Assembly: GCA_022827785.1 (NCBI GenBank)
Contig: JAJEIM010000039.1
Span: forward strand, 18,315-82,314
From: Acidimicrobiia bacterium
Lineage (GTDB): Bacteria > Actinomycetota > Acidimicrobiia > Spongiisociales > Spongiisociaceae
Length of the DNA: 64,000 bases
Direction of reading: 5' to 3'
Shown here: positions 2,465 to 58,425 of the stretch, piece by piece
Layout of the letters: every line of letters starts with the position of its first letter
Numbering within the stretch: the first letter of the stretch is position 1
The notes under the pieces: generated by a model
Told to the model about the DNA's origin: nothing
Seen by the model: the letters and a program-made list of their open reading frames with translations, nothing else
Databases searched by the model: none
Program-made: the position numbers and the translations under genes

Positions 2465-4896
2465 GCGGCGGAGAGCGGGAGATGGTCGGCCTGACGATCG
2501 ACGGCGTGGAGGTGGAGGCGCCCGCCGGGGAGTTGCTGATCAAGGCGGCCGAGGACAACGGCACCCACATCCCGCGCTTCTGCTGGCACCCGCGGATGAA
2601 CCCGGTGGGGATGTGCCGGATGTGCCTGGTCGAGATCGAGACTCCTCGGGGCAGGATCATCGTCCCCTCCTGCATGCAGCCGGTCAACGAGGGAATGGTG
2701 GCGTACACGGAGTCGGCGCCCGCCAAGAAGGCGCAGGAAGGGGTTCTCGAGTTCCTCCTGGCTAACCATCCTCTCGACTGCCCGGTGTGCGACAAGGGCG
2801 GTGAGTGCCCGCTCCAGGACCAGACCATGTCCTACGGCCCCGGGGAGAGCCGCTTCGTGGAGGAGAAGCGCCATTTCGCCAAGCCGGTACCCATCAGCGA
2901 TCTGGTCCTGCTCGACCGGGAACGCTGCATCCTCTGCGCCCGCTGCACCAGGTTCTCGGACGAGATCTCGGGGGATCCGCTGATCGAGTTCCAGGGCCGG
3001 AGTGGCCACACCCAGGTGCTCACTTTCCCGGACGAACCGTTCAACTCCTATTTCTCGGGTAACACCGTGCAGATATGCCCGGTCGGGGCCTTGACCGCCG
3101 TCCCCTACCGCTTCCGGGCTCGACCCTGGGACCTCACCATCGGCGAGAGCACCGGGACGCTTCACACCGAGGGCGCCGGCCTCTCGGTCCACGTCTCCCA
3201 GAACCGCGTGCTCCGCTTCCTGGGTCTCGACATCGGGGCCACCAACCAGGGTTGGCTGTCCGACAAGGAACGGTTCGGCTTCGAGTTCATCGCTTCTCCC
3301 GAGCGGCTCCGCACCCCGCTGATCAAGGACGGGGCCGGATTCAGGGAGGCCGGGTGGGGCGAAGCACTGGACCTGGTGGCGGAGCGGCTCCGGCCTGCGA
3401 TCACCTCGGGGAATGGAGAGTCGGTCGCGGCGCTCGGCGGGGCGCGGGGCACCAACGAGGACGCCTACGCCCTGTCCAAGTTCATGCGGCTGACGGTGGG
3501 GTCGGACAACCTCGACGCCCGGCTCGGCGACGGCCTCCCCGCCAGGCTCCTCACCGGGTTGGCGGGTCGCGGCCGGATAGACGACCTCGAGACCGCTCGC
3601 ACCATCCTGCTGTGGGGCCCGGACCTCAAGGAGACCCACCCCATCCTCTACCTGCGGGTCAGGCGGGCCGCCCAAGAGTTGGGAGCGACGCTGGTCGTGG
3701 TCCATCCGCGCCGGACCGGGTTGGACGACCGAGCCGCCCACAAGCTGACCTACCGGCCCGGAGAGGGCTCGCAACTCCTGGACCGGCTGAAGGACGGCGC
3801 CGGGGAGCTCGGGGCGGTGCGGGAGGCGCTGGACCAGGGCCCCCTGGTCGCGCTGGTGGGGCGTCCCGGACTGGCCGAGGACCCCCGGCTGGCCGAGTCG
3901 GTGGCGGCCTTCGCCCGCTCCCTCGACGCGTCCCTGCTCCCGCTCGTCCATCGTGGTAACACCTTCGGAGCGCTCGACATGGGGGTGGCGCCCGGCCTGC
4001 TCCCGGGCCGCCTGCCGGTCGAGGGCGCGGCGGGACGCCTGGTCGACGCATGGGGCGCCGTGCCGCCGGGCCAGGGCCTCGACGCCGTCGGGATCGCCGC
4101 CGCCTGCAGTGCGGGGGAGATCGACGTGCTCATCCTGTGCGGCGCCGATCCGGCCCGCGACCTGGTGGGTTTCGACGGCTCCGCCGCCCTGTCCGGGGCC
4201 GGATTCGTGGTGGCGTTGGACCTCTTCCTCACCGACTCCTCCAGCCGGGCCGATGTGGTGCTCCCTGCGCTTGGTTTCGGCGAGAAGAAGGGCACGGTGA
4301 CCAACCTGGAGGGCCGGGTCCAGATGGTGAACCGGCTGGTGCCCGGACCCGGACAGGCGCGGGCCGACTGGTCGGTCCTGGATGACCTCGCCGATCGCCT
4401 CGGCCGCCCGCTCAACCTGGGCTCGGAGCGGGACATCGCCGAAGAGATCGCCCGGCTGGCGCCCGCCTACGCCGGCATCACCTGGGATCACCTCGAATGG
4501 GACGCCCAGGAGGGTGAGGTCGCCCCGATCGACCCGGCCGACCAGCCGTTCCTCCACGAGCCCCGCCATCAGGATCTCGACGGCCGGCTCGACGGCCACA
4601 CTCTCCACCTGGCCCGTACCCTCTACGACGACGGTGTGCTGCTCCGCCACTGCCCCTCCCTGGCGCCGCTGGCGCCGGGAGCGAGCGCCTACCTGACCCC
4701 GGCCCACGCCGCTTCGCTGGCGGTGACGGAGGGCGATGAGGTGGTGGTCCGGGCCGGGGATCGGGCGGTGCGGTTGCCGGTGCGGATCGATCCGAGCCTG
4801 GCTGAGGGGTCGGTGTACATCCCCTTCAACCAGCCCGGCCTGGAAGTCGTGGGCAACGCGCTCGGCGTTAGCGTTACCGCGGGGGAGCCGTCCTGA
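2461..4896 (+). CDS. nuoG: NADH-quinone oxidoreductase subunit G
   Basis: 811 aa with N-terminal Fe-S motifs (CRMCLVE, HPLDCPVCDKGGECPLQD, CILCARCTRF) and a molybdopterin-oxidoreductase-like remainder. ATGA overlap with the upstream gene. Confidence 0.93.
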   Translation: MSGGEREMVGLTIDGVEVEAPAGELLIKAAEDNGTHIPRFCWHPRMNPVGMCRMCLVEIETPRGRIIVPSCMQPVNEGMVAYTESAPAKKAQEGVLEFLLANHPLDCPVCDKGGECPLQDQTMSYGPGESRFVEEKRHFAKPVPISDLVLLDRERCILCARCTRFSDEISGDPLIEFQGRSGHTQVLTFPDEPFNSYFSGNTVQICPVGALTAVPYRFRARPWDLTIGESTGTLHTEGAGLSVHVSQNRVLRFLGLDIGATNQGWLSDKERFGFEFIASPERLRTPLIKDGAGFREAGWGEALDLVAERLRPAITSGNGESVAALGGARGTNEDAYALSKFMRLTVGSDNLDARLGDGLPARLLTGLAGRGRIDDLETARTILLWGPDLKETHPILYLRVRRAAQELGATLVVVHPRRTGLDDRAAHKLTYRPGEGSQLLDRLKDGAGELGAVREALDQGPLVALVGRPGLAEDPRLAESVAAFARSLDASLLPLVHRGNTFGALDMGVAPGLLPGRLPVEGAAGRLVDAWGAVPPGQGLDAVGIAAACSAGEIDVLILCGADPARDLVGFDGSAALSGAGFVVALDLFLTDSSSRADVVLPALGFGEKKGTVTNLEGRVQMVNRLVPGPGQARADWSVLDDLADRLGRPLNLGSERDIAEEIARLAPAYAGITWDHLEWDAQEGEVAPIDPADQPFLHEPRHQDLDGRLDGHTLHLARTLYDDGVLLRHCPSLAPLAPGASAYLTPAHAASLAVTEGDEVVVRAGDRAVRLPVRIDPSLAEGSVYIPFNQPGLEVVGNALGVSVTAGEPS

Positions 4897-5981
4897 TGGA
4901 CTGGATCGACCTGGGTCTGGTGGCGCTCCGGGTGGTGGTGGTCTTCGTACTGCTCCAGGTGGTGACCATCCTGCTCATCTGGTTCGAGCGCAAGGTGGTC
5001 GCCGACATGCAGAACCGGGTCGGCCCCGAGCGAGCCGGTCCGTGGGGGATACTCCAGACAGTGGCCGACGGTTTGAAGCTGTTCTTCAAGGAGCAGGTAA
5101 CGCCCCGCAAGGTCGAGCTCGGCCTCTACCTGGCCGCTCCGATGCTGGCCGCCGTTCCCGCCTTCCTCATGTTCATGGTGGTGCCCTTCGGCCGCCCTGT
5201 CCGGATCAACCTGGGAGGCCAGGAGCGGCTGATCCCCATCCAGGGCGCCGACCTCAACATCGGCCTGCTCTACGTGCTCGCCATGTCGTCGGTGGCAGTG
5301 TATGCGGTGGTGCTGGCCGGCTGGTCCTCGGGCTCCAAGTATCCGTTGCTCGGCGGGGTCAGGGCCACCGCCCAAGCCATCTCCTACGAAGCGGCCATGG
5401 GCCTGTCTCTGGTGCCGGTGGTGCTCTTCACCGGCACGCTCAGCCTCTCTGAGATAGTGGCCGCCCAGTCGGGGAGCCTGACCTTCTTCGACCGGGCGCT
5501 CAGCCTCCCGGCCTGGAACGTCTTCGTTCTCGCTCCCTCCTTCCTGATCTTCTTCATCGCCGCGGTGGCGGAGACCAACCGGGCGCCCTTCGACCTGGTG
5601 GAGGCGGAGCAGGAGATCGTCGGCGGGTTCCACACCGAATACTCCGGGCTTCGCTTCGCGCTGTTCTTCCTGGCCGAGTACATCAACATCTTCACCATGT
5701 CGGCCCTGGCCGTGACCCTTTTCCTGGGAGGGTGGTCGGGTCCCACATGGGACGGCACGCTGCCGCTGCTCGTGAGCGCCATCCTCCCGACCGTGTGGTT
5801 CATGCTGAAGGTGGTGTTGTTCCTGTTCATGTACGTATGGCTGCGCGCCACGCTCCCGCGCCTCCGCTACGACCAGCTGATGACGCTCGGCTGGAAACGG
5901 CTGATACCGGCCTCGCTGGTGTGGTTGTTCTTCATCGGAGGGGCGATGGCTGTGCGGCAGTTCGGGCTTCCGTGGGGGTGA
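4896..5981 (+). CDS. nuoH: NADH-quinone oxidoreductase subunit H
   Basis: 361-aa polytopic membrane protein with ND1/NuoH signatures ([27 protein letters not shown]; [16 protein letters not shown]). Start overlaps the nuoG stop. Confidence 0.93.
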
Positions 5982-5982
5982 C

Positions 5983-6663
5983 ATGGGACCGGTAGAGGCA
6001 TTCCTGCGAGGGATGGCGGTGACCGGCCGCCAGTTCATCGCCACCATCACCGGCCGGGGCCTGGTCACCACCCGGTACCCGAAGGTGATGCGGGAGAAGC
6101 CGCAGCGCTTCCACGGCCGGCACGTCCTCAACCGCTACGAGGACGGGATGGAGAAGTGCATCGGCTGCGAGCTGTGTGCGGGCGCCTGTCCGGCCCGCTG
6201 CATCTACGTCCGGGGGGCCGACAACCCGGTGGACGAGCCGGTGAGCCCGGGGGAGCGATACGGCTTCGTGTACGAGATCAACATGCTGCGCTGCATCTTC
6301 TGCGGTCTCTGCGTTGAGGCCTGTCCCACCGAGGCCATCACCCACACGCAGCTGTTCGAGATGTCGACCACCAACCGGTCCGACGCCATATACACCAAGA
6401 CCGAGTTGCTGGTGGACGGAGACGGCCGGCCCAACCACATGTTCGACACGGACCGGTTCGCCGACTTCGACGAGTTGGCCAAGGCCGACGGATGGATGCG
6501 GGCCACGGCCCCCCAGGGCCGGGCCGCCTACGAGGGCCGGGTCGCCTGGTCGGATTCCGCGGGCGTGGGTGTCCGCCCGCCGGAGCGCGGCCAGTCCGGG
6601 CTTCCCGACGAGGCCGTCGCGGATGAAGGGGCGGCTGCGACATCGGAAGGCGCCGACGGCTGA
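5983..6663 (+). CDS. nuoI: NADH-quinone oxidoreductase subunit I (with a C-terminal Ala/Gly-rich extension)
   Basis: Two 4Fe-4S ferredoxin motifs, [12 protein letters not shown] and [12 protein letters not shown]. About 55 extra C-terminal residues beyond the ferredoxin core. Confidence 0.92.
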
Positions 6664-7634: not shown

Positions 7635-9536
7635 ATGACCGGCTACCTCTGGATCGTCATCGTGCTGCCGCTGGCGGGCGCCCTTTTCAACCACTTTCTC
7701 GGACGCCGCATCGGGGAGCCCCGTGCCGCCGGCCCGGCCATCCTGGCGGTGCTCGGATCGTTCGCCTTCGCGGCCGTGGCGGCCCGGGACTTCTTCATCT
7801 CGGCCGGTTCCTCCGAGCAAGCGGTGGCGGTGGTGCACCTGTTCGACTGGATACCGGGCCTGGGCGCCAGGGCCGAGCTGCTCTGGGATCCCCTGTCGGC
7901 CACCATGACCCTGGTCGTAACAGGCGTGGGCGCCCTCATCCACATCTACTCGGTGGGGTACATGCACGGTGATCCCCGGTTCGGCCGGTTCTTCACCTAC
8001 CTGAACCTGTTCATCGCCTCGATGCTGATCCTGGTGCTGGCCAACAACTTCGCCCTCCTGTTCGTGGGCTGGGAGTTGGTGGGTCTCTGCTCCTACCTGC
8101 TGATCTCCTTCTGGTACACCCGTCCGTCGGCAGCCGCGGCCGGCAAGAAGGCGTTCGTGGTGAACCGGGTCGGGGACTTCGGCTTCATGGTGGCCCTGAT
8201 GATCATCTTCCTATCGTTCGGCACCCTCTCCTACACGGAGGTGCTCCACGATCCCGGAACGGTGATCGGCGCCGGCACCGCCACCGCCATCGGCCTGCTG
8301 TTGCTGGTGGGTGCCGCCGGCAAGTCGGCCCAGCTCCCCCTTCACGTATGGCTGCCCGACGCCATGGAAGGCCCCACTCCGGTGTCGGCCCTGATCCATG
8401 CCGCCACAATGGTCACGGCGGGCGTCTACATGGTGGCGCGGTGCGCGGCCATCTTCGGCCTGTCGGATGTGGCCGGCGGGGTCGTAGCCACGGTGGGGGC
8501 GCTCACGGCCCTGCTGGCGGCCACCATCGCCATCGCCCAGCGCGACATCAAGCGGGTGCTGGCCTACTCGACCATCAGCCAGCTGGGTTACATGTTCATG
8601 GCGGTGGGCGTGGCCGGATACGTGGCGGGCCTGTTCCATCTCGTCACGCACGCGGTCTTCAAGGCGCTGCTGTTCCTGGGGGCCGGATCGGTCATCCATG
8701 CCATGGCCGATCAGCAGGACATGAACAGGATGGGCGGTCTGCGCCGGAAGCTGCCGCTCACCCATGCCACCATGCTGATCGCCACCCTGTCGATAGCCGG
8801 CATCCCGCCGCTGGCGGGGTTCTGGTCGAAGGACGAGATCCTGGCGGTCATGTTCTATGCGGGCGGGTACTACACCGTGCTGTGGGCCGTGGGCCTGGTG
8901 ACCGCCCTGCTGACCGCTTTCTACATGGCGCGCCAGTACTTCATGGTCTTCTCCGGCGAAGGCCGCTGGGACGAGGGGGTGGACCCGCACGAGTCGCCCC
9001 GGGTCATGACCGTCCCGCTGGTGATCCTGGGCGCCCTGACACTGGTGATCGGTTTCGTCAACACCCCGTTCCGGCTGAGCTTCGAGCATTTCCTCGATCC
9101 TGTGTTCCACTCGGTTCCGGTGGCGCACGCCCCCGAGGACGGCTTCCTGCTGGCGGCGCTCGCGCTGGTCTCGGTGGCCGCAGGGCTGGTGGGCATCCTC
9201 ATCGCCTACCTGATCTACGGGCGGGCTTCGGAGGAGGTCCGGGAGCGCCTGCTGGGCCGGGTGCGCCGGCCCCTCATGGCCTGGGAGCACGGCTACTGGA
9301 TCGATGACGTGTACGGGAAGGTGATCGTCGAGCCGGGGCTGCGGATCGCGGATTGGAGCGCGGGCGTTCTGGACCAGCGCGCCATCGACGGGCTGGTCAA
9401 CGGGGTCGGGGTCGCGGTGCGCCGGCTCGGGGCCCGTCTGCGGCCTCTCCAGTCGGGATTCGTGCGTGCCTACGGCTCGCTGCTGGCTGCGGGCGCCCTC
9501 CTGGTGGTCGGCTGGATCGTGGTGAGGGGTATCTGA
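7635..9536 (+). CDS. nuoL: NADH-quinone oxidoreductase subunit L
   Basis: Track ORF 7419..9536. The plausible start is the ATG at 7635 (MTGYLWIVIVLPLAGALFNHFLG...). ND5/NuoL antiporter-like membrane protein. Confidence 0.9.
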   Translation: MTGYLWIVIVLPLAGALFNHFLGRRIGEPRAAGPAILAVLGSFAFAAVAARDFFISAGSSEQAVAVVHLFDWIPGLGARAELLWDPLSATMTLVVTGVGALIHIYSVGYMHGDPRFGRFFTYLNLFIASMLILVLANNFALLFVGWELVGLCSYLLISFWYTRPSAAAAGKKAFVVNRVGDFGFMVALMIIFLSFGTLSYTEVLHDPGTVIGAGTATAIGLLLLVGAAGKSAQLPLHVWLPDAMEGPTPVSALIHAATMVTAGVYMVARCAAIFGLSDVAGGVVATVGALTALLAATIAIAQRDIKRVLAYSTISQLGYMFMAVGVAGYVAGLFHLVTHAVFKALLFLGAGSVIHAMADQQDMNRMGGLRRKLPLTHATMLIATLSIAGIPPLAGFWSKDEILAVMFYAGGYYTVLWAVGLVTALLTAFYMARQYFMVFSGEGRWDEGVDPHESPRVMTVPLVILGALTLVIGFVNTPFRLSFEHFLDPVFHSVPVAHAPEDGFLLAALALVSVAAGLVGILIAYLIYGRASEEVRERLLGRVRRPLMAWEHGYWIDDVYGKVIVEPGLRIADWSAGVLDQRAIDGLVNGVGVAVRRLGARLRPLQSGFVRAYGSLLAAGALLVVGWIVVRGI

Positions 9537-9537
9537 C

Positions 9538-11082
9538 ATGAGCGGGTTCTCCACTCTCACCGCCCTCATACTGGTGCCGGTGGCCGGCGCCGTGATCGTG
9601 ATGCTCATCCCGGAACGCCGCCGGGAGCTGGTGCGGCCCCTGGGGGTGGTGCTCAGCCTGCTGCCGGTCCCGCTGGCCGGCGGGCTGTTCCTGGCGTTCG
9701 AAAGGGGAGAGGCGGGATTCCAGTTCGTGGAGCGGTCCGTCTGGATCGACCGCCTGGGCGTAGGCTGGCATCTGGGGGTCGACGGTATCTCGCTGCTCCT
9801 GGTCCTGCTGACGACCGTCCTGGTCCCGGTCGCACTGGCCGCTTCCGGCGGCATCGATCACCGGGTACGGCTGTTCGTGGCCATGATCCTGCTGCTGGAG
9901 GCGGGGCTGATCGGGGTGTTCCTGTCGCTCGACCTGTTCCTCTTCTTCGTCTTCTTCGAGGCGATCCTGGTCCCGATGGCGTTCATCATCGGCATCTGGG
10001 GGAGCGAAAACCGCGTCTACGCGGCGGTCAAGTTCTTTCTCTACACGGCGCTGGGCTCGGCCCTGATGCTGGCCGGCATCATCGCCCTGGCCCTCATCCA
10101 CCGGGAGCAGGTGGGCGAGATCAGCTTCTCGTATCTCGGGATGCTGGACCTCGATCTCGGCCTCGATACCCAGCGGTGGTTGTTCGGGGCGTTCCTGGTG
10201 GCCTTCGCCATCAAGGTACCGGTGTTCCCGCTCCACACCTGGCTTCCTGACGCCCATGTGGAGGCGCCCACCGCCGGATCGGTGCTGCTGGCGGGAGTCC
10301 TACTGAAGCTCGGCACCTACGGGCTCCTCCGGTTCAACCTGCCCCTGTTCCCCGAGGCGACCCTCGACTTCGTGCCTCTCCTGGCCACCCTGGCGGTGGT
10401 GGGGGTGATCTACGGAGCGGTGGTGGCCATCGTCCAACCCGATCTGAAGAAGCCGGTGGCCTACTCCTCGGTCAGCCACCTGGGCTTCATAGTCCTCGGG
10501 ACCTTCGCCCTCACCTCCCAGAGTCTGGAGGGGAGCGTGGTCCAGATGATCAACCACGGTCTCACGACCGGAGCACTGTTCCTGCTGGTCGGGATCCTCT
10601 ACGAGCGCCGTCACACCAAGGCCATCGCCGACTTCGGGGGCCTCGCCTCGTCGATGCCCGTTTTCGCGGGCCTGTTCCTTTTCATCGCCTTCGCCTCAAT
10701 CGGGCTGCCGGGCCTGAACGGTTTCGTGGGCGAGTTCCTGATCCTCGTGGGAAGCTACCCGACCCTGCCGGTGTACACGGTGCTATCAGCCACCGGTGTC
10801 ATCCTGGCCGCGGTCTACCTGCTGTGGGCTTACGAGCGGGTCTTCACCGGCGAGATCACGAACCCGGCCAACCGGCAGGTCCCGGACCTGTCGATCGGGG
10901 AGACCCTGGTCTTCGTGCCGCTGGTGGCGCTCATAATCGTGCTGGGCGTCTACCCGAAGGTGGCGCTGGACGTGATCGGTCCTTCCACCGACGCGGTCCT
11001 GGAACGGGTGGAGGCCACCACCGGGTTCACGGCGCCGGAACCGGGCGGTGACCGTCTCGTGGTATCGGGGAGCGGGGAATGA
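9538..11082 (+). CDS. nuoM: NADH-quinone oxidoreductase subunit M
   Basis: 514-aa ND4/NuoM-like antiporter subunit (FAIKVPVFPLHTWLPDAHVEAPTAGSVLLAGVLLKLGTYG). Confidence 0.92.
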   Translation: MSGFSTLTALILVPVAGAVIVMLIPERRRELVRPLGVVLSLLPVPLAGGLFLAFERGEAGFQFVERSVWIDRLGVGWHLGVDGISLLLVLLTTVLVPVALAASGGIDHRVRLFVAMILLLEAGLIGVFLSLDLFLFFVFFEAILVPMAFIIGIWGSENRVYAAVKFFLYTALGSALMLAGIIALALIHREQVGEISFSYLGMLDLDLGLDTQRWLFGAFLVAFAIKVPVFPLHTWLPDAHVEAPTAGSVLLAGVLLKLGTYGLLRFNLPLFPEATLDFVPLLATLAVVGVIYGAVVAIVQPDLKKPVAYSSVSHLGFIVLGTFALTSQSLEGSVVQMINHGLTTGALFLLVGILYERRHTKAIADFGGLASSMPVFAGLFLFIAFASIGLPGLNGFVGEFLILVGSYPTLPVYTVLSATGVILAAVYLLWAYERVFTGEITNPANRQVPDLSIGETLVFVPLVALIIVLGVYPKVALDVIGPSTDAVLERVEATTGFTAPEPGGDRLVVSGSGE

Positions 11083-44230: not shown

Positions 44231-44252
44231 TGTCACACCCCCTCCTTACCTT
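44231..44252 (+). promoter_or_regulatory. Proximal recA promoter of RecA-NDp type (LexA-independent DNA-damage promoter motif)
   Basis: cTGTCAcac-N8-TAcctT matches the mycobacterial tTGTCRgtg-8nt-TAnnnT consensus. Its -10 ends 58 nt before the recA ATG. Confidence 0.6.
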
Positions 44253-46684: not shown

Positions 46685-46706
46685 TGTCACACAGGCACCA
46701 TAAGTT
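46685..46706 (+). promoter_or_regulatory. RecA-NDp-type promoter motif upstream of the SSB paralogue
   Basis: aTGTCAcac-N8-TAagtT, with the TGTCACAC octamer identical to the recA copy. Its -10 ends 44 nt before the ATG at 46751. Confidence 0.6.
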
Positions 46707-55158: not shown

Positions 55159-56916
55159 CTACAGGTCGGCCGCCCCGATGTCGAACAACACCTGATCCCC
55201 ACCTGTAACGGCACCGTGAAGAGCCGTGCTGAGCGGCAACAGCTGTTCGAGGTAGAAACGGCACGTGGCCTGCTTATGGCGATCTCCTGCGGCGATCGCC
55301 GCCGAAGCGGACTCGGCCATCATCGCTCCGGCCGCCACACCTCCGAACATGAGGCAGTAGGGACTCGCACCCGCCAGCACCCGGTTGGGCCGGTCGCTCG
55401 CGGCGAGGAGCCGGCCGGTGGCGTCCTCTAGTCGAGAAAGGGCCTCTTCGAGACTGTCCGCCGCTCCATGCCACTCCGCCTCGCGCAAGGCGGTCACTGA
55501 AGGTGACAACGACCGGATGTATGACTTCACGAACCTGCCTCCGTCGATGGGAAGTTTGCGCATTACCAGGTCGATGGCCTGAATGCCGTTGGTCCCCTCG
55601 TAGATCGGGGTGATTCGGGCGTCGCGCCAGTGCTGGGCGGCGCCGGTCTCCTCGATATAGCCCATGCCCCCGTGTACCTGGATCCCGATCGAAGCGACCT
55701 CCACGCCTATTTCCGTGCACCACGACTTGACGACGGGGGTGAGGAGCGCCAGGCACTTGGAGTGCAGGCGGCGCTGATCGTCGTCCGGCGCGTCGCGTGA
55801 CAGGTCCTGATGCATGGCTGTCCGGTAGATCAGGGCGCGCATCGCCTCCGTGTAGGACCGCATGGTCAGCAGCATCCGGCGCACGTCCGGGTGATCGATG
55901 ATCGGTGAAATCGGATCTGTGGCCCCGACCGCACGGCCCTGCCGCCGCTCCCTGGCGAAGGCGACGGCCTGCTGGTAGGCCCGCTCCGCCACGGCCATAC
56001 CCTGGATGCCGACCGACACCCGGGCCGTGTTCATCATCGTGAACATGTTCCGCATGCCTCTATCGACTTCTCCGAGGAGGTAACCGACCGCTCCACCCCG
56101 GTCCTCGCCGTAGACCATGACGCAGGTAGGCGTGGCCTTGATGCCCAGCTTGTGCTCCAGCGACACCACTTTGACGTCGTTGCGCTCGCCCGGTTCGCCG
56201 CTCCCGTCCGGCAGGAACTTGGGCACGATGAACATCGAGATGCCCTTGGTGCCGGGTGGGGAACCGGCAATGCGGGCTAGCACCAGATGGATCACGTTGC
56301 TCGCCATGTCATGGTCGCCGTAGGTGATGAAGATCTTGGTTCCGGTGAGGCGGTAGGTTCCGTCCCCGGCAGGATGGGCCCGGGTTTCGAGGGCGCCCAC
56401 ATCGGATCCGGCCTGGGGCTCGGTGAGGTTCATCGTGGCCGACCACTCACCGGTGATCAGCCTGGGAAGGTACAGGTCCCGCTGCTCGTCGGTTCCGTGG
56501 GCGGTGAGGGCGGAGATGGCGCTGGTGGTCAGCAGCGGCCCGGTACTGAAGGAGAGGCATCCCGAGGTGAAGAGTTCCTCGACCGCCACCCCCAGGATCC
56601 GGGGCATGTGGGCGCCGCCCCACCGGGCCGGTGCGCCGATCGTTCCCCACCCGGCGTTCACGTAGGCCTTGTAGACCTCCTGGAAACCGGGCGGGGTAGC
56701 CACCCGGCCGTCCTCGAGGGTTGACCCCTCCACGTCCCCAACCCGGTTGAGAGGCGCCACCAGGTCCTGTACGAAGCGAGCGCACTCGTCCAGAAGCGAA
56801 CCCACCACGTCCTGCTCCACGTGCCGGAACGGTTCGAGGCCGAGGACGCGATCGAGGCCGGCGATATGTTCGAGGGCGAAGTGGACGTCTCGGAGCGGGG
56901 CCACGTAGCCGGACAT
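55159..56916 (-). CDS. Long-form acyl-CoA dehydrogenase (FadE5/AidB-like, with an extra C-terminal domain)
   Basis: 585 aa with MNLTEPQAGSDVGAL, IFITYGDHD, GGMGYIEETGAAQHWRDARITPIYEGTNGIQA, and a ~130-aa C-terminal extension. Confidence 0.88.
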   Translation of the reverse strand: MSGYVAPLRDVHFALEHIAGLDRVLGLEPFRHVEQDVVGSLLDECARFVQDLVAPLNRVGDVEGSTLEDGRVATPPGFQEVYKAYVNAGWGTIGAPARWGGAHMPRILGVAVEELFTSGCLSFSTGPLLTTSAISALTAHGTDEQRDLYLPRLITGEWSATMNLTEPQAGSDVGALETRAHPAGDGTYRLTGTKIFITYGDHDMASNVIHLVLARIAGSPPGTKGISMFIVPKFLPDGSGEPGERNDVKVVSLEHKLGIKATPTCVMVYGEDRGGAVGYLLGEVDRGMRNMFTMMNTARVSVGIQGMAVAERAYQQAVAFARERRQGRAVGATDPISPIIDHPDVRRMLLTMRSYTEAMRALIYRTAMHQDLSRDAPDDDQRRLHSKCLALLTPVVKSWCTEIGVEVASIGIQVHGGMGYIEETGAAQHWRDARITPIYEGTNGIQAIDLVMRKLPIDGGRFVKSYIRSLSPSVTALREAEWHGAADSLEEALSRLEDATGRLLAASDRPNRVLAGASPYCLMFGGVAAGAMMAESASAAIAAGDRHKQATCRFYLEQLLPLSTALHGAVTGGDQVLFDIGAADL

Positions 56917-57040
56917 GACCCGCGATTCTAGAAGCGCAGGACAGGCTACCGGCCGGGGCGCCTACTACTCCTGACGTGACCGTGGGACCCGATCCGTAAC
57001 GCCCGGTTCTTTTCGCGCTCTCGCAGAGAGGGCTCGAAAC

Positions 57041-57062
57041 TGTCACAGGCCCCCGATACGTT
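57041..57062 (+). promoter_or_regulatory. Orphan RecA-NDp-type promoter motif in a gene-free spacer
   Basis: cTGTCAcag-N8-TAcgtT on the plus strand, between two minus-strand genes. It has the same architecture as the recA and ssb-paralogue copies. Confidence 0.5.
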
Positions 57063-57224
57063 GCCTATCGCCAAGCACCTATACCGGCCGAGGCTACGAG
57101 ACCGATCGGAAGGGCCGGGACTGCGGGAACATGACAGCTTATGGAGCGAAGGCCGAACCGTCCGGCAGCCGGCCGGCCGCGGCCTACCCCGCTCCAACAG
57201 GATGGGTGGTGGCGGGGGCGGGGC

Positions 57225-57247
57225 CCGGTGCGGAGCACCGGTCTTTT
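57225..57247 (+). terminator. Plus-strand intrinsic-terminator-like hairpin
   Basis: CCGGTGC-GGA-GCACCGG (7-bp GC-rich stem) is followed directly by TCTTTT. On the minus strand the hairpin is followed by a G/C run, so the polarity is plus. No annotated plus-strand gene ends here. Confidence 0.45.
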
Positions 57248-57273
57248 GGCGAGGTGCCGGGGGGATGGTGGGG

Positions 57274-58425
57274 CTAGAGCCGATCCAGGCCTCGGGCCAG
57301 GTCCTCGATCAGGTCCTCGACATCCTCGAGGCCGACGGAGATGCGCACCAGCCCGTCGGTTATGCCGACCCGGAGGCGCTCCGGCTTCTCCACATCGGCG
57401 TGGGTCATGGTGACCGGGTGGGTGATCAGCGACTCCACCGACCCGAGGTTCTCGGCCAGCGTCCATACCCGGAGGGATCCCATCAGCGACTTGGCGGCCT
57501 CGACGCCGCCCTCGACCTCGAACCATCCCATGGCGCCGTATCCTGAAGCCTGCTCGGTGGCCAGTTCGTGCTGGGGGAACGACGCCAGCCCCGGGTAGGA
57601 GACAGTGGTCACCCTGGGATGGCCCTCCAGGAACTCGGCCACGGCCATGGCGCTGGCCGATTGGCGCTCCATACGCTCGCTGAGGGTCTTGCTCCCCTGG
57701 AGCGTCAGCCAGGCCACCATGGGCGACATGATCAGGCCCGCGGCGTTCTGCACGAAGGCCACCGCCTCCGAGAGCGCCTCCGTCCGGCATACCACCGCTC
57801 CGCCCACGGTGGCGTTATGGCCGTCGAAATACTTGGTGGTGGAGTGCACCACCAGATCAGCGCCCAGCTCGAGCGGGCGCTGGAAGTAGGGGGTGAGGAA
57901 GGTGTTGTCCACCGCGTGGGGAATGCCCAGCGATGTGGCGATCTCCGAGACTCCGGCGATGTCGGTGTACTTGAGGGTCGGGTTGGCGGGCGTCTCGGTG
58001 AAGACGAGCCTGGTCCGTTCGTTGATCGCGGCCGTCACCGCCTCGAGATCGGACGTGTCCGCGAAGGTGAAATCGACCCCGAATCGGGTGAACACCTTGG
58101 TGGCCAGGCGGTAGGTGCCCCCGTAGGCGACATCGCTGACCACAACGTGATCCCCCGCGTTGAGCAGGGCCATGAAGACGGCGTTGGTGGCGGCCATACC
58201 GGTTCCGAACGCCGCCGAAGCGAACCCGCGCTCGAGCTTGGCGATCCGTGCCTGCAGCGCCGTCACGGTGGGATTGGCGGACCGGGAGTACGAGTAGCCG
58301 GTGGCCATGTAGTCGTCCACGGACGGCTGCACGAAGGTGGTCGACTGATGGATGGGCGTGAGGATGGCGCCGCTGGCGGGGTCGGGCGTCACGCCGGCAT
58401 GTATCTGGTCTGTTCTGAACCCCAT
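57274..58425 (-). CDS. Cys/Met-metabolism PLP enzyme (cystathionine gamma-synthase / gamma-lyase family)
   Basis: 383 aa with YSRSANPTV, the PLP-lysine region HSTTKYFDGHN, SLGSVESLITHPVTMTH, and VRISVGLEDVEDLIEDL. Confidence 0.88.
   Translation of the reverse strand: MGFRTDQIHAGVTPDPASGAILTPIHQSTTFVQPSVDDYMATGYSYSRSANPTVTALQARIAKLERGFASAAFGTGMAATNAVFMALLNAGDHVVVSDVAYGGTYRLATKVFTRFGVDFTFADTSDLEAVTAAINERTRLVFTETPANPTLKYTDIAGVSEIATSLGIPHAVDNTFLTPYFQRPLELGADLVVHSTTKYFDGHNATVGGAVVCRTEALSEAVAFVQNAAGLIMSPMVAWLTLQGSKTLSERMERQSASAMAVAEFLEGHPRVTTVSYPGLASFPQHELATEQASGYGAMGWFEVEGGVEAAKSLMGSLRVWTLAENLGSVESLITHPVTMTHADVEKPERLRVGITDGLVRISVGLEDVEDLIEDLARGLDRL

Follow-up and report, generated by a model that had tools for sequence, protein, structure and literature searches.

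The window, as the whole analysed stretch of 64,000 nucleotides from contig JAJEIM010000039.1 of an Acidimicrobiia bacterium is termed here, contains a spacer of 357 bp (56917-57273) between two minus-strand genes, encoding an acyl-CoA dehydrogenase (FadE) and a Cys/Met-metabolism pyridoxal phosphate (PLP) enzyme. On its plus strand this spacer carries, at 57041-57062, the sequence TGTCACAG-GCCCCCGA-TACGTT, which is built like the promoter of recA in the same window, and, 160 nt further downstream, a hairpin followed by TCTTTT. An initial annotation, made from the letters of the window, had read these two signals as the promoter and terminator of an unannotated small RNA or micro-protein gene induced by DNA damage. 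On one sequence the observation was suggestive only, and it is the comparison with relatives which supports the small-RNA reading. Known families did not account for the spacer. None of its four open reading frames (ORFs) was matched in Pfam, and a search of Rfam 15 returned nothing beyond noise in the spacer at E values up to 10. At gathering thresholds the whole window yielded one tRNA only, with no hit to the 6C, 6S, Ms1, Y RNA or riboswitch families; Rfam likewise gave nothing at the RNA units of three other copy-bearing loci. Internal repeats were sought within the 64-kb window and none was found.

In the window the pattern TGTCR-N11-TANNNT is matched exactly three times, at 44231, 46685 and 57041; each match lies between genes, on the plus strand and in the correct orientation, and these are the three sites, at the same coordinates, to which the initial annotation had drawn attention. 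The ORF behind the first encodes RecA (Pfam RecA, E 6e-141), while the gene behind the second encodes a 118-aa SSB-family paralogue and lies two genes downstream of recA. Three matches compare with 0.62 expected, and at least three were reached in 7 of 100 shuffles. A tighter pattern, TGTC-N12-TANNTT, which was chosen partly post hoc, found the same three sites against 0.13 expected, and three were reached in 0 of 100 shuffles. The earlier claim that three hits lie beyond chance thus drew modest support from the a-priori pattern, and stood through the conservation of the sites at orthologous positions in relatives.

A hidden Markov model (HMM) made from unit sequences was used to find further copies, and the spacer unit (~57007-57247, plus strand) belongs to a small family of at least eight distinct copies, which the sampling places in one narrow clade of Acidimicrobiia only, an uncultured one (related loci are given here by their L numbers). 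The contig of the window is itself a metagenome scaffold (ENA ERZ23491425), and uncultured Acidimicrobiia are the nearest relatives of it that bear a name. The homologous PLP-fadE spacer holds the unit in L082 and L083, the fadE of which is ~90% identical to that of the window, in L163 (84%) and in L169. Members of the L164/L165/L166/L002 lineage, the fadE of which is 76% identical, have a unit in the PLP-fadE spacer as well, but there its orientation relative to both genes is reversed; two more copies occur in this lineage, one flanked by gcvP and a proline-racemase gene (~81% identity over 290 nt) and the other, which is divergent, beside an RNase HII gene, and the three copies lie within 10 kb. 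Another spacer, between two substrate-binding-protein (SBP) genes, is occupied in L162, L170 and L171. Copy number is low, at one unit in 81 kb of the window contig (reading ~17 kb beyond the window revealed no extra motif site and no second copy) and one per 20-kb locus in L169-L171, and viral contigs and plasmids gave no unit matches. The PLP-fadE spacers of the GTDB species-level relatives (L003-L006), and of L084 and L168, measure only 17-126 nt and are without the unit, and were therefore unusable for covariation. Because the layout from promoter to terminator is kept despite changed orientation and position, the unit is, judged from its sequence, an autonomous gene and not a leader, a 3' untranslated region (UTR) or a relic. 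Alignment of the units of the window, L082, L083, L163 and L169 revealed conserved blocks split by diverged stretches, the blocks being the promoter region, GCCAAGCAC, GGGAACA, ATGGAGCGA, GGCATGGCCGACCACGCTCC, the G-rich tract and the terminator.

A covariance model, R1, was seeded on seven copies and matched the window at 57068-57245 (165 bits, E 2e-36, the window copy being part of the seed), in good agreement with the transcript from about 57069 to 57247 that had been predicted. R1 also recovered copies which were not in the seed, namely that of L082 (E 3e-33) and the three copies of the L164 lineage (E 1e-6 to 1e-17), and found no match in 23 loci of more distant Acidimicrobiia. When MAFFT and RNAalifold were applied to all copies they misaligned P2, P3 and the terminator, and because of this misalignment of the variable helices a manual structural alignment and the covariance model were used instead. 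Every row of the manual structural alignment was checked against its sequence, and it holds 283 Watson-Crick, 9 G-U and 7 mismatched cells. In the model-fitted alignment 92.3% of cells pair, as against 81.3% after shuffling and 30-43% with the partners slid. Changes on both sides affect 11 pairs, a number reached by 0 of 500 shuffles, and the covariation score is 0.267 versus 0.100. The conservation of the spacer in relatives and the covariance of its helices, which the initial annotation had named as a check on its proposal, were thus both observed.

Six helices, with the terminator included (Table 1), are kept via compensatory changes. In the outer part of P1, G-C becomes A-U in the divergent copy and G-U in L162 and L170, and in its inner part CACC becomes CACU, with a U-G pair, in the L082 group. 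P2 corresponds to the pairing of CCGGCC at 57084 with GGCCGG at 57113 that had been noticed in the window sequence; it is found in relatives as ACCGGTA/TACCGGT, GCCGGG/CCCGGC, CGGTCGAG/CTCGACCG and ACAGCC/GGCTGT, four pairs having changed on both sides, and the palindrome CCGATCGG at 57102, likewise noticed earlier, forms its apex. The third pairing proposed at that time, CCCCGC at 57187 with GCGGGG at 57212, exists in the sequence, but it is not conserved and had to give way to P3 (CGCTCC with GGAGCG). In the divergent copy P3 reads GGGAUG/CGUCCC, with two double changes and one U-G pair, and U-G and G-U variants of P5 occur in L170 and L171. The terminator stem also covaries (GCCCGGC/GCCGGGC, GCGGGC/GCCCGU) and has U-G pairs in L163 and in the L162 group; in a terminator scan the hairpin with its TCTTTT was the sole terminator-like site in 56500-57700, and the plus-polarity terminator-like hairpin of the initial annotation was thereby confirmed.

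Table 1. Coordinates of the predicted RNA unit, its promoter elements and helices, the adjoining genes and the related promoters (positions refer to the window unless a locus is named).
Feature	Position	Strand	Description
Predicted non-coding transcript, ~180 nt	57068-57247	+	covariance model R1
T-tract/CGCG box	57007-57022	+	TTCTTTTCGCGCTCTC; ~60 nt upstream of predicted start; near-repeat after terminator
-35-like hexamer	57034-57039	+	TCGAAA; 17 nt from -10; promoter alignment of all copies
-26 box, PafBC/RecA-NDp type	57041-57048	+	TGTCACAG; TGTC invariant, flanks variable across copies
-10 hexamer	57057-57062	+	TACGTT; promoter alignment of all copies
P1 outer	57070-57072 with 57211-57213	+	GCC / GGC; closes molecule
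P1 inner	57076-57079 with 57205-57208	+	CACC / GGTG; AAG and GT separate it from outer part
P2 hairpin	57084-57089 with 57113-57118	+	CCGGCC / GGCCGG; apex palindrome CCGATCGG at 57102-57109
P3	57143-57148 with 57190-57195	+	GGAGCG / CGCTCC; encloses P5 and conserved junction 57177-57189
P5	57162-57166 with 57172-57176	+	CCGGC / GCCGG
G-rich tract	57214-57224	+	GGGGGCGGGGC, between P1 and terminator; conserved in alignments
Intrinsic terminator	57225-57247	+	CCGGTGC-GGA-GCACCGG then TCTTTT; stem 57225-57231 / 57235-57241
recA promoter	44231-44252	+	TGTCACAC-N8-TACCTT; 59 nt upstream of RecA ORF; reference regulon member; kept in L169-L171
SSB-like gene promoter	46685-46706	+	TGTCACAC-N8-TAAGTT; kept in L162, L163, L169-L171
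recA/ssb-like boxes in relatives	L162 20294; L163 11704; L169 8365/10719; L170 8404/10679; L171 8377/10679		TGTCAYAS-N8-TAnnTT
Acyl-CoA dehydrogenase gene (fadE), 585 aa	55159-56916	minus	start borders spacer
Cys/Met-metabolism PLP enzyme gene	57274-58425	minus	stop borders spacer

The strand was assessed from G-U pairs, which are tolerated in RNA on the transcribed strand and appear as A-C on the other. By our tally of the alignments there were ~10 independent G-U events (among them CACU in the L082 group, GGU in L162 and L170, U-G in several terminators and the P2/P5 wobbles of L170/L171) against 3 A-C events, the latter all on terminal branches. We favour an RNA on the plus strand because of the promoter, the U-tract and these wobble counts, the difference in folding energy between the strands being too small to carry the call.

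Two further features of the fold were recorded. In 4 of 5 subfamilies P2 has a perfectly palindromic apex, with a sequence that varies among them (CCGATCGG, GCCAATTGGC or TTCGAA; window 57102-57109, L162 ~16765, L164 ~9580), and it could serve for kissing-loop dimerisation or as a protein site. The run GGTGGTGGCGGGGGCGGGG at 57205-57224, which is kept in all copies, has G-tracts enough for a two-tier G-quadruplex in the non-template strand or in the RNA.

The coding potential of the unit was judged from the same copies. They differ by indels of 1, 2 and 4 nt, with 2 nt separating the window from the rest and 4 nt setting L082 apart from L083, to which it is otherwise nearly identical. Neither the ATG at 57131 nor the 'ATGGAGCGA' start is preserved in other copies, where ATA, AGA or TAG is found; the 'ATGGAGCGA' start reads TAGGAGCGA in L162, and unit substitutions show no bias to third codon positions. 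In view of the frame-shifting indels and the unconserved start codons, the unit is judged not to be protein-coding. The statement that the spacer is without a credible ORF therefore held, in that its four ORFs lack a Pfam match and the frame is unconserved, and of the two products that had been offered for it, small RNA or micro-protein, the structured non-coding unit conserved in relatives stood and the micro-protein did not.

Actinobacteria respond to DNA damage chiefly through the PafBC regulon. In mycobacteria its promoters follow the consensus tGTCgg(N10)tA(N3)T and are described as being without a -35 element, and PafB reads the GTC triplet by its two guanines, which are almost invariant across Actinobacteria (PMC8635444). 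In the promoter alignment of the RNA units TGTC is invariant in every copy, the most divergent included, with variable bases on both sides; the spacing TGTC-N12-TA is constant in all copies, and the -10 hexamer is TAYRTT in 8 of 10 distinct copies and TACGTA in two copies of the L164 lineage. The recA box is TGTCACAC or TGTCACAG-N8-TACCTT in the window and L169-L171, and in L169-L171 recA bears the octamer TGTCACAG, identical to the box of the RNA unit in the window. The five other genomes having the SSB-like gene (L162, L163, L169-L171) carry TGTCAYAC-N8-TAYATT before it, with TAAGTT as the -10 sequence in the window. Throughout 171 loci (1.18 Mb) the clade form TGTCAYAS-N8-TAYNTT was found only at recA, ssb-like and element promoters.

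The unit promoter therefore shares with the PafBC/RecA-NDp class a bipartite architecture and its spacing (TGTC-N12-TANNNT beside tGTCgg(N10)tA(N3)T, with GTC invariant in both), and the recA gene of the same genome uses the same box. It differs in that the local consensus is TGTCAYAS, not TGTCGGTG, and in that the box of the window drives a predicted non-coding RNA. Of the features by which the class is defined in sequence, the TGTC core, the 12-nt spacing, TANNNT and a box common to recA are present in the RNA-unit promoter. Because the box at recA and the ssb-like gene is kept in every relative sampled, a PafBC-type damage regulon appears to exist in this Acidimicrobiia clade, and the assignment of the motif to the RecA-NDp/PafBC type in the initial annotation is supported in that every genome sampled retains the TGTC core and spacing in its unit copies, at recA and at the ssb-like gene.

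Some related promoter observations are added here. The 5' leader of the ssb-like gene, GGTCTACCTATCGCACTT, is nearly invariant among the relatives. In L012, another, distant actinobacterial metagenome-assembled genome (MAG), a gene for a helix-turn-helix (HTH)-WYL regulator (5790-6532, minus strand), probably leaderless, has TGTCACTGGTCTCCGATACGTT immediately upstream, the box before it being TGTCACTG-N8-TACGTT; this suggests that in L012 the WYL regulator gene may itself lie behind a promoter of this type. More box matches were seen in remoter Acidimicrobiia, ahead of uncharacterised genes, at L005 1093-1114 (TGTCATAG-N8-TATAAT) and at L098 1334 on the minus strand (TGTCATAG-N8-TAGGTT).

Taken together, the explanation that we prefer, and hold to be fairly probable, is that the spacer is a stand-alone gene for a structured, trans-acting RNA of ~180 nt, which has a recA-type promoter and would be induced with recA after DNA damage. 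The two parts of this explanation differ in firmness, as the unit is, on comparative grounds, a real new small RNA (sRNA) family, and this family probably belongs to the damage regulon. According to the proposed mechanism, RNA polymerase with the housekeeping sigma factor (sigma-A) would start at ~57068, 6-8 nt downstream of TACGTT, and a PafBC-like WYL activator bound at TGTCACAG would boost transcription after DNA damage, alongside that of recA, with the -35-like hexamer permitting some basal sigma-A transcription. Termination at the hairpin and U-tract would yield the ~180-nt RNA, in which P1 is predicted to join the 5' end to the G-rich 3' region, followed by the variable P2 hairpin and a P3/P5 domain whose unpaired junctions are strongly conserved. 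The RNA may then act in trans, by base-pairing or by protein binding, via the conserved single-stranded segments GCCAAGCAC, GAGGGAACA and GCAUGGCCGACCA, which, as invariant unpaired segments of the model, are the best candidates for an interaction surface.

Several observations weigh against this explanation. With regard to the promoter, half of the copies have TGTCC or TGTCG in place of TGTCA, and other copies have a -35-like TTGAAA or TTGAAC (TCGAAA in the window, with 4/6 consensus matches), an element that canonical PafBC promoters are without and that the recA and ssb-like promoters of the clade also lack. Because the RNA-unit promoters bear this hexamer, some PafBC-independent transcription of the unit is plausible. 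A search by tblastn found no WYL/PafBC gene in the window, and the Pfam hits over the 81 kb of contig read did not include one either. With regard to the structure, covariation was scored in an alignment that the model itself had been used to fit, and no more than 5 or 6 independent lineages contribute to it; folding of the single sequence was no better than that of shuffles (z = -0.26), and this went for both strands, so that one sequence alone would have revealed no structure, and independent folds of the GC-rich copies recover the consensus helices only partly. The energies of the two strands lie close together (-48.4 vs -45.4 kcal/mol). Finally, the identity of the unit, 0.69-0.71, does not exceed the 0.73 seen at fadE four-fold degenerate sites in the closest pair, and constraint is therefore visible only as conserved blocks and compensated stems.

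The flanks of the unit bear on the question of its mobility and are described before it is discussed. A direct repeat of 14-15 nt, TTTTTCGCG(T/C)TCTC, brackets most copies, lying in the window at 57007-57022 and 57242-57254, that is at about -60 and just past the terminator. In one L164 copy it is an exact 15-mer (957-971 and 1204-1218), and the 3' repeat is followed in L164 by an apparent truncated second promoter region; in the L162 group the 5' repeat is absent. The bracketing repeat could be the scar of a tandem duplication, an UP-like element or an integration site. An inverton, in the sense of an invertible promoter, was considered and rejected, since the flanking repeats are direct and not inverted.

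Among the rival explanations, the one which survives best, although we regard it as unlikely, is a small mobile or duplicating DNA cassette, similar to a miniature inverted-repeat transposable element (MITE) or a Correia element, which carries a promoter and a terminator and in which the hairpins serve the DNA with no dedicated RNA function. The occurrence of the unit in different spacers and in both orientations among lineages, the clustering of three copies in the L164 lineage and the repeat TTTTTCGCG(T)TCTC around most copies all favour such a cassette, and Correia/NEMIS-type MITEs are likewise small intergenic modules with promoter and terminator signals that are found in either orientation. 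The unit, however, has no terminal inverted repeats and no variable target-site duplication, its flanking repeats being direct and of the same sequence at every site, and no transposase lies nearby. Its low copy number and the lack of viral and plasmid matches also speak against a cassette, as do the internal, RNA-type helices, which covary far from the ends and tolerate G-U on one strand only, and the selection on the promoter core. Mobility and RNA function are not mutually exclusive.

That the unit serves a neighbour (fadE, the PLP enzyme gene or the SBP gene), whether in cis as its regulatory leader or riboswitch or as its 3' UTR or terminator, seems to us improbable. This reading owes what credit it has to L162, L170 and L171, in which the unit lies directly upstream of an SBP_bac_8 gene, in the same orientation and with its terminator just before the ORF, and to one L164 copy which points towards fadE. 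In the window, L163, L082, L083 and L169, however, the units run towards the 3' terminus of a gene convergent with them and have no ORF downstream, and another L164 copy likewise meets a convergent gene; the unit of the PLP-fadE spacer is inverted in L164, and the structure is maintained in all these contexts. Antisense control of the PLP gene by read-through was likewise tried as a general function and rejected, as the orientation differs in L164.

We give still less credence to the view that the spacer preserves the fossil of a lost plus-strand gene, such as the GcvT/DmdA-like gene of L162, the promoter and terminator of which would have survived the deletion. L162 does have, in its PLP-fadE spacer, a 408-aa GCV_T gene on the same strand as the element, and an 11-mer, ACATGACAGCT, is common to the unit and to the start-codon region of that gene. 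The 11-mer, however, has an E value of ~0.26, and apart from it neither the GCV_T gene nor its flanks resemble the unit in DNA or protein sequence; moreover, a relic would not retain compensated helices and conserved blocks in at least five lineages, nor would it have paralogues in other spacers.

Very improbable, too, is a gene for a damage-inducible micro-protein or type I toxin. Enterobacteria do have small toxins under SOS control, a 48-codon ORF spans 57131-57277 in the window, and ORFs beginning MER... are found in some copies, but the start codons, the indels of 2 and 4 nt that shift the frame and the lack of third-position bias tell against translation, and the ORF of the window would have to cross the terminator. 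Chance co-occurrence of a motif and a hairpin in a non-functional spacer, for which the modest enrichment of the a-priori pattern leaves some room, is scarcely credible given that several genomes retain the three sites at orthologous positions, that the 1.18 Mb of loci contain the motif nowhere else and that the whole unit is conserved and structured.

The genes around the spacer deserve brief mention. Relatives of the fadE of the window are named 3-(methylthio)propanoyl-CoA dehydrogenase (DmdC) by JGI, and in L162 the 408-aa gene of the GcvT family (GCV_T, DmdA-like; 8582-9808) stands between the PLP enzyme gene and fadE, where the window has the RNA unit. Because of this gene and the naming of fadE homologues as DmdC, the PLP-fadE neighbourhood looks like a cluster for catabolism of dimethylsulfoniopropionate (DMSP) or methionine. 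A palindrome, TTCTAGAA, lies at 56922-56932, only a few bases ahead of the start codon of fadE. L082 and L083 keep this palindrome, L162 and L163 do so in part, and it may be a candidate fadE operator, and the start region near it is without an obvious Shine-Dalgarno sequence. In L164 an AT-rich stretch (3840-4000) between the inverted unit and fadE holds two direct repeats, TTACTGAT(A/G)AC, which the window does not have and which are a candidate regulator site.

To our knowledge, no actinobacterial sRNA other than 6C RNA has so far been linked to DNA damage. In Corynebacterium glutamicum the level of 6C RNA goes up about two-fold upon treatment with mitomycin C, and according to a 2019 study of PafBC no mycobacterial sRNA had up to that time been implicated in the PafBC response (PMC6789036). 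The RNA described here resembles 6C RNA in being an actinobacterial, stand-alone structured sRNA linked, in its case probably, to DNA damage, but it gave no match to the Rfam 6C model, it is G-rich and multi-helix where 6C has two C-rich loops, and its family is clade-restricted and changes position, whereas 6C is phylum-wide and single-copy. The enterobacterial istR/tisB, dinQ/agrB and symR/symE are LexA-controlled small RNA/toxin loci, and like the present unit they are small, unannotated units placed in a damage regulon by their promoter; the box in the window, in contrast, is of the activator type and not a LexA operator, and neither a toxin ORF nor an antisense partner accompanies it. Bacterial Y RNAs, which act with Rsr, are UV-induced in Deinococcus and have paired 5' and 3' ends, are structured non-coding RNAs of similar size with a plausible stress link, but no rsr/TROVE gene occurs in the nearby gene lists, and the long Ro-binding stem, the tRNA-like module and an Rfam match are all lacking here.

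In a bolder form, which we offer as speculation and think unlikely to hold, the RNA would be the first RNA component of the actinobacterial LexA-independent PafBC/WYL damage response. Co-induced with recA and the SSB-like protein, it would act on the response itself, rather than by simple mRNA pairing, either through protein binding at its conserved junctions (with a WYL/Sm-like domain, the OB fold of the SSB-like protein or RNA polymerase as partners) or through self-association at the palindromic apex of P2.

If the preferred explanation is correct, an RNA gene behind a recA-type promoter would add a post-transcriptional or RNA-protein layer to the PafBC response, and the promoter logic of PafBC would be extended to the deep-branching class Acidimicrobiia. 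The units would also constitute a new family for Rfam-style annotation, and they indicate that, in the MAGs of bacteria which are uncultured and apparently live with sponges, long spacers taken to be 'empty' can conceal autonomous RNA genes which shift position and orientation over evolutionary time.

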